NCBI GenBank assembly: GCA_031800475.1
Contig: DAPKRQ010000263.1
Location: 14,547 to 78,546 of the forward strand
Origin: Myxococcales bacterium LLY-WYZ-16_1
Lineage (GTDB): Bacteria; Myxococcota; Kuafuiibacteriia; Kuafuiibacteriales; Kuafuiibacteriaceae
Reading direction: 5' to 3'
Length of the DNA: 64,000 nucleotides
This document shows positions 31,636 to 41,139 of this stretch, in pieces (within the stretch, counting starts at the first letter, position 1; each line of letters begins with the position of its first letter). The notes under the pieces were generated by a model. It was given only the letters and a program-made list of their open reading frames with translations. It was not told the origin of the DNA and did no database searches. A program made the translations under genes and the position numbers.

Positions 31636-34600
31636 TTGTCCATGGAATCGAACGGTTCATTTTCGCCTCTTCAGTCCCTGACGGGTCGGAGCGTCCTGCT
31701 CCTCGGCACCACCGGATTCTTGGGGAAGGTGGTGCTGGCCATGCTCCTCGAACGGTTTTCGGTCCGGCGGCTGCACTGCATCGTCCGGTCTACCCGAAGC
31801 CAGAGCGCAGCAGACCGATTCCGGGCCGAGGTGCTCGGCTCGGACATGATGAAGCCGCTGCGCGCCCGCTTCGCGGACAGCTTCGACGCATGGGTGGAGG
31901 AACAGGTCGAGGTCCACGACGGCGGCCTGCGCGAAAACCTCGGGTTGGCACCAGAGGTGGTGGAGCGGCTTCGGGGCGAGCTGGACCTGGTGATCAACTC
32001 GGCGGGCCTGGTGAACTTCAACCCAGCCCTGGATCAGGCCCTCGAGAGCAACACCCTGGGCGCCGACGTGGTGGCCCGGTTCACACGGGCCTGCGACCGC
32101 GCAAAGCTCGTCCACATCAGCACCTGCTTCGTCGCGGGAAACCGAAGCGGCCGGATCCGAGAAGACGCCAACGTCGTCGGATGGTTTCCGCGGCAAGACG
32201 AAATGCCCGGGGCGACCCTCGATTGGCAGCGCGAGGTCGGCGACCTGCAGCGACTCATCCAGCAGGTCCGCGCGCGCACCGACGACGCGGCGCTCGAGGC
32301 CCACTTTCGTCAGGAGGCGCTGGACCGGCTGAAGCGTGAAAGCCGGGAAGCCTCGGAACGAACCGTCCGGGCCGCCTTGACCAACCAGCGCCGTCGTTGG
32401 GTCACCGACGAGTTGATAAGACTCGGTCGGGAGCGGGCAGAGCATTGGGGCTGGCCGAACATATATACCTACTCCAAGGCCCTCGGCGAACAGGCCATCG
32501 CCTCGAACGAAGATCTCGATTGGGCCATCGTTCGGCCGGCCATCGTCGAAAGCGCGCTGAAGTATCCCTTTTCGGGGTGGAACGAGGGCATGAACACCAC
32601 CGCGCCCTTGGCCCTCATCGGCAAGCGGGGCCAGTTGGTCTATCCGGGGTCCAACGACTTGATCCTCGACGTCGTCCCCGTTGACTTCGTCGCCTCTGCC
32701 ACCATCGCCGCGGGGGCGGCGCTGCTCGACGGCGAGGGCAACCGGGTCTACCAAGTTGCGGCGGGCGACGTGAACCCGTGCAGCATGGCACGCACGGTCC
32801 ACCTCCTCGGTATCTATCGAACCCGGCAGCTCAAAGAACGGGAAGATCAAGGGGAGCTTTCCTCTTGGAAAGCTTCGGTGGCCCGCCTGGCCCGCCCCGT
32901 CCCGCGCAGCAAAGCCACCTACCAGACCTTCGGCGCCCCGGGGCTGCGGCGACTGGTCTCCGGAATCAAATCGCGCCTGGACGAACTGGAGCCCGAACGC
33001 CTCGGTTCTCTTGGCGAGTTCGTGCATCGGGCCCAAAAGGCCGCCGCCGACGTGGACGGGGAGCTGGCGAAGGTGGTCGACGCCTTCGAGCTCTTCATGC
33101 CGTTCATCTGGGAGCACCGATACGTCTTCCGCTCCGACAACACTCGCCGGCTGTTTCGCGACATGGCACAGGCAGACCGGGGTTTGCTTCCCTTCGACAC
33201 CGAGGGCATCGATTGGCGTCACTATTGGCTGGACGTCCATCTTCCGGGATTGGAAACCTGGGTATTTCCGAAACTCGAAACGCAGGGTCCAAAGCGGATC
33301 GCGATCCATCGAGACTATCGAGACCTCGCCGAGCTGTTCGATTCCCGCACGCGGGACAATGCGCGGCGAACGGCCTATCGGATCCTTCGAAAAGACGACG
33401 TTGCCGACGGCTTCACCTACAAGGACCTTCGGCGCGCAGCCACAGCCGTGCAAGCGTTTTTGCAACACCAGGGCATCGGGCGCAAAGATCGCATCGCCAT
33501 CGCGTCGGAAGGGCGCCCCGAGTGGGGGATGTGCTTTTTCGGGATTCTGTTGTCTGGAGGCACCGCAGTCCCGCTGGACGTCGAGCTTTCCGATGGCGAG
33601 CTATCGAACATCGTTCGAAGCAGCGGGTGCAAAGGGGTGATCGCCAGCGACGAACAGCGAACGAAGCTGTCGTCGGTCGGGGTTCCGGTTTGGTCCTTTT
33701 CCGACGTATTCGAGACCGCCCACACCCGAACCGAGACGCAACTCGCAACCATGCGCCGTAGGCCCGAGGACGTGGCGTCGATCATCTTCACATCCGGGAC
33801 CACCGGTCGCCCGAAGGGTGTGATGCTGACGGACCGGAACTTCACCGCGTTGACCGCTCGGCTGTCGGCGCTTTTCGAGCTACAGCGCTCGGACGCTCTG
33901 TTGTCGGTTTTGCCTCCTCACCACACCTTCGAGTTTTCGGCCGGTCTATTGATGCCATTGGCCGCTGGGGCCAGCGTGACCTATCTGGAAGAGCGCTCCC
34001 CCGAGCTGATTCAGCGGGCCTTCCGCGAGATTCCCGTTACTGGGCTCATCGGGGTGCCAGCGGTCTGGGAGAGCCTGCATCGACGAATCGTCGAACGGGT
34101 CGAGCAGCATCCGCTTCTGGTTCGTTGGACCGTAAAGACTCTTTCTCTTTTGAACAGAAAACTTCGAGAGAAAACCGGCATGAACTTCGGCCGACTGGCC
34201 TTTCGAAAGGTGCACGCCGGCTTTGGCGGGCGACTCCGCTACCTGGTGAGTGGGGGCGCCGCGCTGTCCACCCGGGTGTTCAACGATCTCCGTGGCTATG
34301 GATTCTCGATCTACGAAGGCTACGGGCTCACCGAGGCCGCTCCGGTGCTCACGGTCGACTGGCCCCGGCAGCGCTTTCCGGCGGGCAGCGTCGGATGGCC
34401 CTTGCCCGGAATCGACGTACGTCTTCACGCCGCCGACGACAACGGAATCGGAGAGGTGGTCGCTCGGGGTCCGACGATCATGCTCGGGTACCTGGACGAT
34501 CCGGATTCCACCCGAGGAGTTTTGAAGGACGGATGGCTGCATACCGGCGATCTGGGGCGGTTCGACGACGACGGGCGCCTGTATATCGTTGGTCGCAATA

Positions 34601-36009
34601 AAGATGTCATCATCGACGCCAACGGCAAGAATGTCTACCCAGACGAGGTCGAAGAGCTCTACGAGGGCCACCCGCTGATCAAGGAGCTTTCGGTGGCCGG
34701 CATTCCGGACGAGACCGGCCAGCATGAGCGGGTGGCGGCCATGGTTCATCCCGATTTCGAGCGAGGCAAAGACGAGGATGATCTGGACCCGAACGAAGTC
34801 GAAGAGCGGATCCGCGCCCATTTTCGCGAAGTCGGAAGCCGACTCCCGTTCGCGCGGCGGGTCAAGGTTCTGCACTTTGCTCGGTCCGAGCTGCCACGCA
34901 CTTCCGCCCGCAAAATCCGGCGCAGCTGGGTGCGGCAGGAACTCGTTCGACTGGAAGGCGCCGGGCGAAAGGTCGAAGCCGGCAACGGGACCACCAGTCA
35001 AACCGCAGAGCGTGTCCGCCGGTTGGTTGCGAACGTCGCCCAGCGTCCGCTGCGGGACTTGAGTCCGGCCACGTCGCTTTCGAACCAGCTCGGGTTCGAT
35101 TCGCTTCTTCAGATGGAGCTTTTGAATGCCCTGGAGCGGGAGTTTCCAGACCGGGACCTGGCGCCGGAGGAGCTGACTGCCGTCGACACCCTGTCGGAGC
35201 TCGTGCAGTTGATGGAGCGCAGCCCCGACCATCGCTCCCGTCCCGTCACCGACGTCGCCCACGAGGAAGAGGCCCCTCCGGTCAAGATCCCAGGACCGGT
35301 GGCCCGGATGGGCAAGCGCATGCTCGGTCAGGCTCAACATCTGGCCTACGACCGGTGGCTGCACTGCGAAGTTCAGGGCCGTGGCAACATTCCCGCGAAT
35401 ACCAACTTCATCGTGGCGTCGAACCACGCGAGCCATCTGGACATGGGCCTCGTAAAGTATGCCCTCGGGCCTTTCGGACGGGGGCTGCGGTCCCTGGCCG
35501 CTCGAGACTACTTCTTTGATGATCCGGTCCGCCGGACCTACTTCGAAAACTTCACCAACCTGCTTCCGATGGAGCGGCACGGCTCTCTGCGCAGGTCGCT
35601 CGAGTTGGCCGTACGTAGCTTGCGGCAGGGCGAGTCGCTGTTGATCTTTCCCGAGGGCACCCGGGCCCGGGACGGGGTGATGACTGCCTTCAAGCCGGCA
35701 GTGGGCTACCTGTGCCTCCACGCCAAGGTCGACGTCTTGCCGATCTACTTGCGAGGCACCCACCAGGCGCTGCCGGTCGGGGAATGGCGTCTGGACCCGG
35801 CGCTCAAGATCGAGGCTCACATCGGTCCTCCGATTCGGGTCGACGCCATGATGGAAGCCACTCGAAAGATGTCCCGCTCTCGCGCCTACCGCCATGTGGC
35901 CCAGCAGGTGGAGGCTGCGGTCCGACGGCTGGGACGCGTGGAAGACGTGGCGACATCGGACGACGACCATCCATCGTGGGTGCTCGAGCGACGGGAGCGG
36001 TCCTCGTGA
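31636..36009 (+). CDS. Four-domain lipid-biosynthesis enzyme: fatty acyl-CoA reductase (NAD_binding_4) - long-chain acyl-CoA ligase (AMP-binding) - ACP - lysophospholipid acyltransferase (AGPAT); ElbD-like (myxobacterial ether-lipid biosynthesis)
   Basis: FAR domain: GTTGFLGK and YTYSK motifs. AMP-binding domain: TSGTTGRPKG, YGLTEAAP, GWLHTGDLGRFDDDGRLYIVGRNKD. ACP: LGFDSL. AGPAT: NHASHLD (HX4D) and FPEGTR. 1457 aa. Confidence 0.85.
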   Translation: MSMESNGSFSPLQSLTGRSVLLLGTTGFLGKVVLAMLLERFSVRRLHCIVRSTRSQSAADRFRAEVLGSDMMKPLRARFADSFDAWVEEQVEVHDGGLRENLGLAPEVVERLRGELDLVINSAGLVNFNPALDQALESNTLGADVVARFTRACDRAKLVHISTCFVAGNRSGRIREDANVVGWFPRQDEMPGATLDWQREVGDLQRLIQQVRARTDDAALEAHFRQEALDRLKRESREASERTVRAALTNQRRRWVTDELIRLGRERAEHWGWPNIYTYSKALGEQAIASNEDLDWAIVRPAIVESALKYPFSGWNEGMNTTAPLALIGKRGQLVYPGSNDLILDVVPVDFVASATIAAGAALLDGEGNRVYQVAAGDVNPCSMARTVHLLGIYRTRQLKEREDQGELSSWKASVARLARPVPRSKATYQTFGAPGLRRLVSGIKSRLDELEPERLGSLGEFVHRAQKAAADVDGELAKVVDAFELFMPFIWEHRYVFRSDNTRRLFRDMAQADRGLLPFDTEGIDWRHYWLDVHLPGLETWVFPKLETQGPKRIAIHRDYRDLAELFDSRTRDNARRTAYRILRKDDVADGFTYKDLRRAATAVQAFLQHQGIGRKDRIAIASEGRPEWGMCFFGILLSGGTAVPLDVELSDGELSNIVRSSGCKGVIASDEQRTKLSSVGVPVWSFSDVFETAHTRTETQLATMRRRPEDVASIIFTSGTTGRPKGVMLTDRNFTALTARLSALFELQRSDALLSVLPPHHTFEFSAGLLMPLAAGASVTYLEERSPELIQRAFREIPVTGLIGVPAVWESLHRRIVERVEQHPLLVRWTVKTLSLLNRKLREKTGMNFGRLAFRKVHAGFGGRLRYLVSGGAALSTRVFNDLRGYGFSIYEGYGLTEAAPVLTVDWPRQRFPAGSVGWPLPGIDVRLHAADDNGIGEVVARGPTIMLGYLDDPDSTRGVLKDGWLHTGDLGRFDDDGRLYIVGRNKDVIIDANGKNVYPDEVEELYEGHPLIKELSVAGIPDETGQHERVAAMVHPDFERGKDEDDLDPNEVEERIRAHFREVGSRLPFARRVKVLHFARSELPRTSARKIRRSWVRQELVRLEGAGRKVEAGNGTTSQTAERVRRLVANVAQRPLRDLSPATSLSNQLGFDSLLQMELLNALEREFPDRDLAPEELTAVDTLSELVQLMERSPDHRSRPVTDVAHEEEAPPVKIPGPVARMGKRMLGQAQHLAYDRWLHCEVQGRGNIPANTNFIVASNHASHLDMGLVKYALGPFGRGLRSLAARDYFFDDPVRRTYFENFTNLLPMERHGSLRRSLELAVRSLRQGESLLIFPEGTRARDGVMTAFKPAVGYLCLHAKVDVLPIYLRGTHQALPVGEWRLDPALKIEAHIGPPIRVDAMMEATRKMSRSRAYRHVAQQVEAAVRRLGRVEDVATSDDDHPSWVLERRERSS

Positions 36010-37001
36010 AGGTGGTGGTGACCGGGGCCAATGGCTTTTTGGGTCAGGCCGTGGTCGACGCCGTGCTGGACGCCGGCCACCAGGTACGCGCTTGGTTTCG
36101 ACGGCCGCCAGCGCAGGCACGAACCGACGTGGACGTTCGGGTGGTGGACCTGGAGCAGGACCCGGACCTGGACCGCGAACTCGAGGGGGTCGACGCCATC
36201 ATCCACCTGGCAGGCCTCGTCTCTCGACGTCCGGAAGACGCGACCCGCATGTACCGGCTGCACTTGGCCTGCACGCGCAAGCTCCTGGAAGCTTCGGAAC
36301 GCCGAGGGGTGGCTCGATGGGTCTTGGCTTCCTCGTCGGGCACGGTGGCAGTGTCCTCCCAAAAACGGGTGATGGACGAAGACCACGAGCCCGACCTGGA
36401 ACTGGTGGGCCGCTGGCCATACTACATGTCCAAGCTTCACCAAGAGCAAGAGGTCTTGCGTTGGTACGAACGAGGTGCGGTCGAGCCCGTGATCTTGAAC
36501 CCGTCCCTCTTGCTGGGACCCGGCGACGCCCGGCTGTCGTCCACGGCCGACGTCCTCGATGTGCTGACCGGAAGATACCCGGCAGCTGTAGACGGCACGG
36601 TGGCCTTCGTCGACGTGCGAGACTGCGCTCCCATTTTCGCGAAAGCCCTGAAGAGAGGCCGTCCGGGAGAGAAGTATCTCTTGAATGGCGCCAATATGTC
36701 GGTTCGGCGTTTCGCCGAGCGGGTGGCGCTGACCGGAGGCGTCGCCGGCCCCCGGATGGTGGTCAAGGGAGCCTGGGCGTACCGGGGGGCGAAGCTCTTG
36801 GAGGGCCTCCGCACCGCAGCGGGACTGGATCCCGAGGCCGGGCTCGATCCGGTGGCGGTCGACATGGCCCGACACCACTGGGCTTGCGATTCCCGGCGGG
36901 CCATGTCCGAGCTCGGGTTCTCCCCGCGGGACCCGGCCCGTACCATCGCGGACACCGTGTCGGACCTGGAATCCCGAAACCTCTTCCGTCGTTCGGCCTG
37001 A
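36006..37001 (+). CDS. NAD-dependent epimerase/dehydratase-family (extended SDR) protein; ElbE-like
   Basis: VVVTGANGFLGQAVV Rossmann motif. The GTG start overlaps the upstream stop (GTGA). About 330 aa. Confidence 0.75.
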   Translation: MKVVVTGANGFLGQAVVDAVLDAGHQVRAWFRRPPAQARTDVDVRVVDLEQDPDLDRELEGVDAIIHLAGLVSRRPEDATRMYRLHLACTRKLLEASERRGVARWVLASSSGTVAVSSQKRVMDEDHEPDLELVGRWPYYMSKLHQEQEVLRWYERGAVEPVILNPSLLLGPGDARLSSTADVLDVLTGRYPAAVDGTVAFVDVRDCAPIFAKALKRGRPGEKYLLNGANMSVRRFAERVALTGGVAGPRMVVKGAWAYRGAKLLEGLRTAAGLDPEAGLDPVAVDMARHHWACDSRRAMSELGFSPRDPARTIADTVSDLESRNLFRRSA

Positions 37002-38357: not shown

Positions 38358-38460
38358 TCTTTGGCCGATTTCGGGGTCCTCGCACCCATGACGAACACGA
38401 AACCCTGGACCGGGCGAGGCTCCGACTGTGCGCGCCGACCGGGCCTGCTACACTCGAGGC

Positions 38461-38733
38461 ATGTTCGGCCCCGGTATCGCCATGGCCGCAGGCATGGCCG
38501 AGCCTCCACAACCGGATCCGGTCCTCCGGATCATCTTCGCGTTGATGGCCCTGGCGCTCGTGGGTTTGGCGATCCGGATGAGTCTGCGCATCCTGGCGCT
38601 CTTTCAGAGCCCGCCGCCCGTCTACGGCATGCGCTCGAGCTGCCCCCGCTGCCAGCAGGAGCTGCATCTGTGGACCGGCGCGACCCGCTGCCCCAAATGC
38701 GATCTTCGGATCGTGGTGCGGTTTGAAGAGTGA
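38461..38733 (+). CDS. Small membrane protein with C-terminal zinc ribbon (CPRC...CPKC)
   Basis: One TM helix (ILRIIFALMALALVGLAI), then CxxC-N17-CxxC. ORF only. Confidence 0.35.
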   Translation: MFGPGIAMAAGMAEPPQPDPVLRIIFALMALALVGLAIRMSLRILALFQSPPPVYGMRSSCPRCQQELHLWTGATRCPKCDLRIVVRFEE

Positions 38734-38965: not shown

Positions 38966-39775
38966 ATGGTCGCGTTGGGGGGCTGGGCCGTCATGCTCTT
39001 GGCAGGCGCGAGCGTGCCGGGTTCGTCCGAGGCGCCGCCGCCCCCAGCCGACGCCGGTCCGCCCTCGGAGGAATGCGTGGGTTGCCCGCCGCGGTCTGGG
39101 TTTTTCGTTCGCTTCACTGGAAACGGCCTGACCGGTTGGTACGGAGACCCGCTCTACGCCGACGCCGAACGACGGGCCATCTCAGAGTTGGCCTTCGGAG
39201 CGGGCATGGCGTTCGGCCTGCAGATCGACCCCACCTGGAGCATCGCGGTGTTCGGCGACGTGTTGTTCGGAGGCGTGGATACCACGTCGCTCGAAGGCTT
39301 CGCCCAGTTGGCGGACGTGGACAGCCTTCAGGCCAGCGTCGGGCTCAGCGGCCGCATCACCCTGGGGCAAGACCCGGGCTGGCAGCCGGTGCTCGGGGTG
39401 GAGGGGGCGCTGCTGCGACAGTGGGTGTGGTGGCAAAGCGCCGAGGGACGGCCCGTGGCCGTGCTCAGCCCGTACACGGGCCGTCGGGTTGGCACGGTCT
39501 ACCGACCAGAGCTCGAGCTTCGGAGCCAACACGACGGGTGGGCCGTGGGCCCGATCTTGGGTCTGGCCAAGCGCCTGGGCCCGGATGGATATGGACCGAA
39601 GTTCGTGGTCGAAGCGGCCGGCCAGTACCAGCGGTGGTCGCCCGGGAGCACCGACGTGAGCGCCGCGCCCAGCCGCGAAGTGCTGGAGGCCACGGTCCGC
39701 TCCATCGAATCGATTCAGCAAGACGCCGAAGTGTGGAGCGCCACCATCCGGGTGGGCCTGCAGTTCGGGCCGTGA
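38966..39775 (+). CDS. Secreted hypothetical protein (signal peptide; possible beta-rich OM or periplasmic protein)
   Basis: N-terminal signal MVALGGWAVMLLAGASVPGSS. No known motif. Confidence 0.45.
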   Translation: MVALGGWAVMLLAGASVPGSSEAPPPPADAGPPSEECVGCPPRSGFFVRFTGNGLTGWYGDPLYADAERRAISELAFGAGMAFGLQIDPTWSIAVFGDVLFGGVDTTSLEGFAQLADVDSLQASVGLSGRITLGQDPGWQPVLGVEGALLRQWVWWQSAEGRPVAVLSPYTGRRVGTVYRPELELRSQHDGWAVGPILGLAKRLGPDGYGPKFVVEAAGQYQRWSPGSTDVSAAPSREVLEATVRSIESIQQDAEVWSATIRVGLQFGP

Positions 39776-39793
39776 CACGAGGTCGTTCCAATC

Positions 39794-40564
39794 ATGAGAT
39801 GGCTCTTTGCTCTATCCCTGCTCGTAGCCAGCAACCTCGGTTGCTTCGAAGACCGGGGCCGTCCTGCGGGTCCCAGTTCCCAGTGGATCTGCACACCCGC
39901 CGACGACGCCGATCCTCCCGGGACTCCGGGGGACCCGGACACGCCGCCGTCGGTCCCGGATGATCCGAGCTGTCCCGCGCCGAGCTGTCCGTCCGGCCTG
40001 GACGCCATGTACGTGTCGGGAGACCCGATGGCATGCGCGGCCATCGAGTTCGACTGCCCCGAGGGTGAAGTGCGGTTCGACGCACCGTGCGGATGCGGCT
40101 GCCGCCCCGAGGCGCCATCCGGCGGAGACTCGGGCTCCACCGGCCTATGTCCGGAGCCGGGAGAGAACGGAGCCTTCTATTTGGGCGAAGGCGGCAAGGT
40201 CTGCGAGACGATCGACTTCACCTGTCCCGACGGCCAAGAGCGATTCGACGGCCCGTGCGGATGCGGTTGCTGGAACGGCTGCCCGGATCCGGAAGACCCC
40301 CGGGTCCACTATCTCTCGGAAGACCCGGAAATCTGCGAGCTCGTCGAGTTCACGTGCCCGGCCGACTGCGTGGCGTTCGACGACGGCTGTGGGTGCGGTT
40401 GCATCGAGCCCGAGGCCGGAGCCGCATGCCCCGATCCCGACGATCCGACCGTGTTGTACGTGAGCACGTCGACCACCGTGTGCAGCCGGGTGAACCTGAA
40501 TTGCCCGGGCGACAGCTTCGACGACGCCTGCGGCTGCGGCTGCCTGGACGACCCGGGCAACTGA
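39794..40564 (+). CDS. Cysteine-rich lipoprotein with four tandem ~45-aa repeats, each ending FDxxCGCGC (about 31 Cys in 256 aa)
   Basis: Lipobox SNLGC. Four copies of CP(D/E)P...Y(V/L)S...C..(I/V)(E/D)F(D/T)CP......FD..CGCGC, read directly from the translation. Confidence 0.6.
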   Translation: MRWLFALSLLVASNLGCFEDRGRPAGPSSQWICTPADDADPPGTPGDPDTPPSVPDDPSCPAPSCPSGLDAMYVSGDPMACAAIEFDCPEGEVRFDAPCGCGCRPEAPSGGDSGSTGLCPEPGENGAFYLGEGGKVCETIDFTCPDGQERFDGPCGCGCWNGCPDPEDPRVHYLSEDPEICELVEFTCPADCVAFDDGCGCGCIEPEAGAACPDPDDPTVLYVSTSTTVCSRVNLNCPGDSFDDACGCGCLDDPGN

Positions 40565-40614: not shown

Positions 40615-41139
40615 CTACGGTCTCGGGCTGGCGCCCCCGCACACCGCGCCGGTGTCCTGGTCGGCCACGGAGTCGTTGTAGGCGTTCAGCGCGTCTTGGA
40701 ACCGCGCTTCGCTCCGGCGGGTGGCGCCGGCCGACACGAGTGCCGGGATCAGGGAGGTTCCGGCCAACACCAAACCCGCGATGCCTTCGCCTTGAATCTC
40801 GTCCTCCAGGGGCCCCGGCTCGTCCTGCAGGTCGACCGCCACCAAAATCACGGCCGCCGTCGACATGGCGAGGGACGTCATCGAAAACCAGAATGCCTGC
40901 TGGCGGGCCCCCTGCGCCCGCTGGGCATAGCCGCGGGCCTCGGTGTCTGCCGGAAAGATGCCGTCCAGACCCGAGAACATGCTCTCGTCGAGGGCGTACC
41001 GCTCACCGCACCGGCTGACGGTGCGCCGCAATCCCTCATGCTCCACTCGAGCGAATCGAGGCTGTTGCGGAACGTACTCGGTCGTGGCGCAACCGACCAG
41101 GGCGGTCAGCGCCGCGACCGAAGCCAACCTGCGTGTCAT
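40615..41139 (-). CDS. Hypothetical lipoprotein with one internal TM segment
   Basis: Signal plus lipobox LVGC. Hydrophobic helix AVILVAVDL. Confidence 0.45.
   Translation of the reverse strand: MTRRLASVAALTALVGCATTEYVPQQPRFARVEHEGLRRTVSRCGERYALDESMFSGLDGIFPADTEARGYAQRAQGARQQAFWFSMTSLAMSTAAVILVAVDLQDEPGPLEDEIQGEGIAGLVLAGTSLIPALVSAGATRRSEARFQDALNAYNDSVADQDTGAVCGGASPRP

Follow-up and report, generated by a model that had tools for sequence, protein, structure and literature searches.

Several kinds of small cysteine-rich units in exported proteins have been described. Kazal domains (PF00050/PF07648) have six cysteines in about 40-50 residues, and they occur outside the cytoplasm in tandem arrays. 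Their reference pattern is C-x7-C-x6-Y-x3-C-x2,3-C-x~17-C, with the core PVCG.DG.TY, and the fold has a reactive loop, a small β-sheet, and then a helix with Cys4 and Cys5. Kunitz/BPTI domains (PF00014) follow the pattern C-x8-C-x15-C-x7-C-x12-C-x3-C, and the C-terminal domain of the tick thrombin inhibitor ornithodorin (PDB 1TOC) is Kunitz-like. In the Myxococcota, the Myxococcus cysteine-rich repeat (TIGR02232/DUF4215) and the MopE-type motifs are cysteine-rich tandem repeats of exported proteins. In bufferin loci, DUF2063 is the usual companion of the MNIO enzyme. The bufferin precursors are defined by their genetic association with MNIO (DUF692) (PMC11626156), and the Buf2 bufferins (BUF_6/12Cys) have six or twelve conserved cysteines, Sec signals, and duplicated 6-Cys domains, with lipoprotein signals in about 16% of them (PMC12452194, PMC11626156). 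There are also lipoproteins that are encoded with, or work with, an outer-membrane β-barrel. In enterobacteria, RcsF pairs with OmpA/C/F. In Myxococcus xanthus, the adhesin lipoprotein CglB has been studied together with the Glt gliding machinery (PMC9946355).

We analyzed 64,000 nucleotides (the window) from Myxococcales bacterium LLY-WYZ-16_1, an organism that is named in a paper about photosynthesis gene clusters in Myxococcota (PMC10576062). The window encodes a cysteine-rich protein with four tandem modules that each end in CGCGC, and the gene lies directly downstream of a gene for a predicted outer-membrane β-barrel (Table 1). The module coordinates are from a profile HMM that was built from related modules and run on the six-frame translation of the window; this profile found no CGCGC module outside the four in this protein.

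Table 1. The four-module gene, its partner, and other genes of the window that are discussed in the text
Feature	Positions	Strand	Basis or remark
1457-aa multidomain protein	31636..36009	+	
NAD-dependent epimerase	36006..37001	+	
Zinc-ribbon membrane protein	38428..38733	+	
Partner gene; product of 269 aa has a signal peptide and is a predicted outer-membrane β-barrel of about 8 strands ending in conserved GLQFGP	38966..39775	+	
18-nt spacer CACGAGGTCGTTCCAATC with a GAGG Shine-Dalgarno-like element	39776..39793	+	Read from sequence
Four-module cysteine-rich (lipo)protein, complete ORF	39794..40564	+	256 aa plus stop; stop-free translation
Signal peptide MRWLFALSLLVASNLG, then Cys17, the putative lipidated +1 cysteine	39794..39844	+	Almost all 34 close homologs keep a cysteine that closes the hydrophobic region, and many of them have a canonical lipobox
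Pro/Asp-rich tether, residues 18-64, probably disordered, with extra Cys33 and Cys60	39845..39985	+	Composition from sequence
CGCGC module 1, residues 65-104	39986..40105	+	HMM domain match, i-Evalue 4.8e-15; regex extraction
CGCGC module 2, residues 119-160	40148..40273	+	HMM domain match, 4e-16; CPDGQERFD loop strongly conserved among orthologs
CGCGC module 3, residues 163-204, with a seventh cysteine (CPADC)	40280..40405	+	HMM domain match, 6.4e-20
CGCGC module 4, residues 212-251	40427..40546	+	HMM domain match, 2e-15
174-aa ORF, convergent	40615..41139	-	

The ORF of the four-module protein is a real gene, as conservation of its product in 34 close homologs shows (from a word-indexed search of 5.8 billion proteins). 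All 34 of these relatives are labeled 'hypothetical', and where a taxon is named, the source is a Myxococcota MAG. A protein that is 99.6% identical (P0001) is present on 10 contigs from independent samples. The GC content at the three codon positions is 0.64, 0.60, and 0.80, which fits the true reading frame in a sequence of 66.6% GC.

A first-pass annotation of the window had described this ORF as having four modules with seven cysteines each, for a total of about 31 cysteines, and with FD..CGCGC at the end of each module. The four modules are borne out by the translation and by the profile HMM, which matches all four at full length. However, the protein has 28 cysteines (11% of residues), and just six of the cysteines are invariant in each module. 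The seventh is found only in module 3, and it is kept in module 3 of the orthologs. The ending was described correctly for all four modules: CGCGC occurs exactly four times (at residues 99, 155, 199, and 246) and is always preceded by F-[D]-x-x (RFDAPCGCGC, RFDGPCGCGC, AFDDGCGCGC, and SFDDACGCGC). In one ortholog (L009:5980-6747), module 2 has FDCVEGCGC instead, with the first cysteine of the triplet shifted; this is a rare natural variant. The protein is strongly acidic, with a mature pI of about 4 and 47 D+E versus 8 K+R.

The module has the pattern C1-x17-C19-x6-C26-x10-C37-G-C39-G-C41, with six invariant cysteines in about 42 residues. We extracted 120 modules with one regular expression. 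In an alignment of 111 modules (A1), C1, C19, C26, C37, G38, C39, G40, and C41 were invariant, and P2 and F33 were nearly so. Across 491 near-complete modules that were re-extracted from 172 proteins, the six cysteines, Y11, F33, G38, and G40 were nearly invariant; positions 12, 22, and 24 were hydrophobic; and acidic residues dominated elsewhere. The aromatic and aliphatic core of the module (Y11, I22, F24, and F33) is conserved. To measure the size of the family, we used HMMER to search a 42-position profile exhaustively against 1.84 billion cluster representatives (clustered at 50% identity). This identified 1062 clusters at E ≤ 1e-3, 292 at E ≤ 1e-10, and 50 at E ≤ 1e-30, with 2 to 8 copies of the module per protein.

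The cysteine-rich protein has no match in Pfam or NCBIfam at E ≤ 1, so the earlier impression that neither TIGR02232 nor metallothioneins match it was right. The TIGR02232/DUF4215 repeats and the MopE-type motifs share the phylum, the export, and the cysteine-rich tandem layout with the CGCGC proteins, but they differ from the CGCGC module in cysteine spacing and signature. There is also no match for the full-length protein among PDB sequences (using phmmer; the family and PDB searches were at E ≤ 1 to 10), and we found nothing relevant in the literature on CGCGC or this lipoprotein or on Kazal domains with Myxococcota. The CGCGC module is a large six-cysteine domain family that is undescribed and unannotated. 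Few members carry a taxon name, and all of these are from Myxococcota (Myxococcales, Polyangiales, Sandaracinaceae, or Bradymonadia); among named members, the module is so far found only in this phylum. It is widespread in uncultured Myxococcota. The family merits a Pfam or NCBIfam model, which would give a consistent label to thousands of metagenomic 'hypothetical proteins.'

There is no tandem repeat at the DNA level in the four-module gene. Among the four-module orthologs, the modules within one protein are 42-51% identical, while a module and its counterpart at the same position in another species are 58-67% identical. Because orthologous modules are closer than paralogous modules, the four-module array must be old, with each module individually conserved. 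Other members of the family have different N-terminal regions. In P0020, P0031, P0032, and P0149, the motif GGK.D...D.C..LGWYGDGVCD.FC..PDPDC precedes the modules, and in P0018, residues 50-85 are a somatomedin-B-like segment (CWCDxxCxxxGDCCxD) instead.

When we modeled module 2 with AlphaFold2, using the alignment of 111 modules, we obtained a confident prediction (mean pLDDT of 85) of a compact fold without any metal. The model has a strand at positions 10-13, a helix at 16-21, and strands at 32-35 and 38-41. The three C-terminal cysteines of each module would sit in a turn and a strand with glycines between them, and the invariant glycines that flank these cysteines suggest that the strand is tightly packed. 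Most likely, the three C-terminal and the three N-terminal cysteines do not bind metal but are joined in three structural disulfides. The export signal, the even number of invariant cysteines, the conserved hydrophobic core, and the invariant glycines beside the C-terminal cysteines all point to a disulfide-stapled mini-domain. (Roughly 10 of the 491 modules lack a cysteine, which is too few to infer the disulfide pairing from paired losses.) The first-pass annotation had suggested a disulfide-knotted structural protein as one option, and, taken broadly, this suggestion fits the export, the six invariant cysteines around a core, the metal-free fold, and the disulfide-rich fusion partners that we describe below.

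Its other option was a periplasmic or surface protein that binds or stores copper, zinc, or cadmium, which has fared less well. The CGCGC strands and the other cysteines would coordinate thiolate clusters, as in metallothioneins, and indeed the high cysteine content and the CxCxC motifs recall metallothionein and MymT. In addition, one distant relative (of 56 that we scanned for domains) has a MopE-type 'putative metal-binding motif' (PF11617). However, the Sec/lipoprotein signal exports the protein to an oxidizing compartment, and six invariant cysteines per module around a hydrophobic core, with confidently predicted secondary structure, are unlike metallothioneins. The mature protein has 1 histidine in 239 residues and no Met-rich motif, and it does not match any metallothionein or metal-related family in Pfam or NCBIfam. 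The domains that are fused to the module are disulfide-rich extracellular domains. Finally, at eight distinct loci, we found no cop/cus/czc genes or other genes for metal resistance or homeostasis. Nothing specific supports metal binding or storage, and we consider it quite improbable.

A related idea is that the protein is the precursor of a bufferin-like RiPP, in which an MNIO enzyme would turn the cysteines into copper-chelating heterocycles. As in Buf2 bufferins, there are six-cysteine units, the unit is duplicated, and there is a Sec or lipoprotein signal peptide. But bufferins adjoin genes for MNIO and its partner, and among the called neighbors within about 6-8 kb at the loci examined (L001-L008, L014, and L015), there is no MNIO (DUF692; PF05114) and no DUF2063 (PF09836) partner gene. 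Nor does the protein match DUF2282 or the bufferin models in NCBIfam or Pfam, and the neighbor that is conserved is the outer-membrane barrel. We regard a bufferin-like precursor as very unlikely indeed.

The lipobox that the first-pass annotation reported is partly as described. By the criterion that [LVI][ASTVI][GAS]C closes the signal peptide, the orthologs have canonical lipoboxes (such as L-S-G-C or L-A-A-C) with the cysteine at the same place, so the position of the cysteine is conserved. However, the box of the window protein (S-N-L-G-C) is non-canonical, with Asn at position -3. Given the atypical Asn here and the canonical boxes in the orthologs, lipidation of the window protein is likely but not certain. 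In M. xanthus, 8 of 12 inner-membrane lipoproteins have Lys at position +2, and this residue correlates with retention in the inner membrane (PMC3222651). The +2 residue of the mature protein in the window is Phe, not Lys, so the default expectation is that it is in the outer membrane, and sorting to the outer membrane is most likely.

Besides the lipobox cysteine, the protein has 27 cysteines. Because this is an odd number, at least one thiol must be unpaired or in an intermolecular bond. Cys33, which lies in the tether in a W/V-x-C-x-P context, is present in the orthologs that have a barrel partner (P0002-P0004, P0006-P0008, P0010, and P0015) and absent from the unpartnered P0012-P0014, P0016, and P0017. 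For instance, the related lipoproteins P0016 and P0013 have neither the barrel partner nor this N-terminal cysteine.

The barrel gene is separated from the four-module gene by only the short spacer, with no terminator-like site between them, which is consistent with co-transcription. AlphaFold2 (with 5 sequences; pLDDT of 75, pTM of 0.68) predicts a signal helix followed by long antiparallel strands. The protein is predicted to be a small outer-membrane β-barrel that is similar to NspA or OmpA, and it has the features of the OmpA-TM/NspA/OmpW class: a signal peptide and a predicted closed, antiparallel barrel of about 8 strands that matches known outer-membrane proteins in structure. It has no match in Pfam, NCBIfam, or the PDB sequences, and its family is tiny (5 clusters in our homology search).

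A scan with the single lipoprotein identified 5 Myxococcota loci. In L005/L006, L009, L010, L014, and L015, the lipoprotein gene is immediately preceded by a gene for a homolog of the barrel (34-43% identity), and the pairing is kept in six lineages whose other neighbors differ. Near-identical contigs from several samples repeat the gene order of the window, and conservation of RsmB, the zinc-ribbon gene, the gene for the 174-aa lipoprotein downstream, and Ldh is limited to such contigs. As none of these four is kept at diverged loci, we rejected them as functional partners. Of the two upstream genes that were pointed out in the first-pass annotation, both exist as ORFs; the one with a signal peptide, which was not recognized as a barrel, is linked by synteny, but the zinc-ribbon gene is not conserved. 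(The zinc-ribbon protein has only sub-threshold matches to zinc-ribbon families in Pfam.) These results show that the dedicated barrel and the tethered four-module protein are a real, conserved two-gene cassette, which would be located at the outer membrane.

As with RcsF or CglB, the lipoprotein is linked to a barrel by gene pairing or function, and behind its lipid anchor there is a long disordered tether; its sequence is unrelated to theirs. Unlike in those pairs, this barrel is a member of a tiny dedicated family, and we predict the association from the gene pairing. The pairing offers a simple two-gene system for studying how such a lipoprotein is held or displayed at the outer membrane. 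Two side observations concern these loci. The MAG P01_D01_bin.141 encodes a pair of paralogous four-module lipoproteins; the one in L010 has the barrel partner, and the one in L012 lacks it. Also, the convergent 174-aa ORF in the window combines a canonical lipobox (LVGC) with two hydrophobic segments and gives a weak, sub-threshold match to the SLATT domain (E = 0.005).

We compared relatives of at least 300 amino acids (n = 56) to Pfam. Ten have Kazal domains, three have antistasin, two have Kunitz, and two have pacifastin domains; other domains are scattered. Inhibitor domains are the dominant recognizable partners of the CGCGC module, and of all our observations, this company is the best pointer to its function. 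Per-protein scans and direct reading of the sequences confirmed that the partner domains are genuine and separate and are interleaved with full-length modules. P0107 has the order Kazal, module, Kazal, Kunitz, module; P0149 has a module, eight antistasin repeats, and another module; in P0055, modules alternate with pacifastin domains; and in P0145, a repeated cysteine spacer is followed by a Kazal domain four times and by a CGCGC module once. One cluster carries the label 'Kazal-type serine protease inhibitor domain-containing protein [Bradymonadia]'; other clusters are from Sandaracinaceae and Myxococcales. Since the module is fused to four unrelated families of inhibitors, and sometimes takes the slot of a Kazal domain, we infer that the module shares their functional class.

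Direct tests of homology between the module and the Kazal and Kunitz domains were negative or marginal. The sole PDB sequence that was matched by two independent module profiles was the C-terminal Kunitz-like domain of ornithodorin, and these matches were reproducible but marginal (E = 0.0066 and 0.02). In the hmmsearch alignment, residues 74-107 of ornithodorin align with C1, Y11, C19, C26-P, G29, and F33 of the module. The first cysteine of the Kunitz domain is absent from the module, and there was no Pfam match. A genuine Kunitz domain shares the polypeptide with CGCGC modules in P0107. Comparison to Kunitz domains by hhalign gave a probability of 1.2%, which leaves a divergent-Kunitz origin unsupported. 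Kazal domains resemble the module in size, in having six cysteines, in being tandem and extracytoplasmic, in occurring in the same polypeptides, and in the local spacing C-x6-[FY]-x3-C-x3-C. We rejected a divergent-Kazal origin as well: when 111 modules were compared by hhalign to 20 co-occurring bacterial Kazal domains, the probability was 1.4%, there was no Pfam match at E ≤ 1, and the predicted module does not have the Kazal fold.

We tentatively propose that this is an outer-membrane-tethered, disulfide-stapled, four-headed protein that resembles protease inhibitors and works with its barrel partner, although we would put this at somewhat less than an even chance. The lipoprotein would be exported by Sec, anchored by lipid, and sorted to the outer membrane, where the Pro/Asp-rich tether would carry the four tandem modules. 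Each module would be a small disulfide-rich 'head' that binds or inhibits a protease. The protein might thus act as a four-headed inhibitor or decoy that shields proteins of the envelope from proteases, whether foreign or made by the cell itself, and the 8-stranded OmpA/NspA-type barrel upstream would probably be its docking or display partner. Several observations argue against inhibition. Co-occurrence with inhibitor domains is guilt by association, and inside inhibitor proteins, the module might instead provide spacing or binding. Most members of the family, including the window protein, lack a recognized inhibitor domain. The loops of the module are acidic, unlike the basic or hydrophobic P1 sites that are typical of canonical inhibitors, and the candidate loop in module 2 is conserved and not hypervariable.

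These observations also bear on the possibility that the protein is a non-inhibitory structural, adhesive, or ligand-binding array. In that case, each module would be a rigid, acidic bead that is stapled by disulfides and functionally similar to LDL-receptor class A or EGF-like domains. Anchored at the outer membrane by the barrel, the array would serve as a spacer or as a binding site for a partner protein, a polysaccharide, Ca2+, or a cationic ligand. The predicted fold and the conservation of the modules fit such an array as well as they fit an inhibitor, and the surface is very acidic. Furthermore, the conserved CPDGQERFD loop of module 2 suggests that the partner is endogenous and does not vary, as would be true of the co-conserved barrel, and in some relatives, the module is found together with Ig-like or structural domains (DUF11, SdrD_B, CarboxypepD_reg, VWF-like, or Dumpy DPY). 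In contrast, the commonest recognizable partners are four unrelated families of inhibitors, not adhesion domains, and the module does not match LDL-A, EGF, or other families of binding modules. We view such an array as a serious alternative, although somewhat less likely than an inhibitor-like protein.

If the inhibitor-like reading is correct, then bacteria would gain a fifth kind of inhibitor-like module that is small and disulfide-rich, in a family of over 1000 clusters at 50% identity. It would also mean that Myxococcota, which live by secreted proteases, resemble animals in making mosaic inhibitors with several heads. A bolder version is that the module is a new structural family of inhibitor, with no solved relative of its fold, that arose in Myxococcota beside the Kazal, Kunitz, antistasin, and pacifastin domains, and that in this gene it forms a four-headed inhibitor, which a dedicated, co-evolving 8-stranded outer-membrane barrel keeps or presents on the cell surface; we think this is unlikely. 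If it is true, the lipoprotein and the barrel would form a new type of 'protease shield' in predatory or social bacteria.

Across the loci that we inspected, no protease gene is consistently adjacent, which also counts against inhibition. The proteases that do lie near some loci are an M28 peptidase at 5-6 kb in L005 and L014, an M10 peptidase in L007, and an S10 peptidase in L017.

The mosaic relatives P0149 and P0037 have a different upstream gene, which encodes a protein of 242 or 196 amino acids, respectively (L016:5151-5879 and L018:5367-5957). By eye, these two proteins share motifs, and one of them has a weak match to an Ig-like family (PF22544). This gene might represent another kind of conserved partner. 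Further upstream lie genes for a Ser/Thr kinase and a sigma-54 activator.

Further upstream in the window, the 1457-aa protein combines NAD_binding_4 and Sterile domains (a fatty-acyl reductase) with AMP-binding, PP-binding, and acyltransferase domains, and it is followed by the NAD-dependent epimerase. We take the architecture of the 1457-aa protein to match that of ElbD, the ether-lipid synthesis enzyme of Myxococcus.
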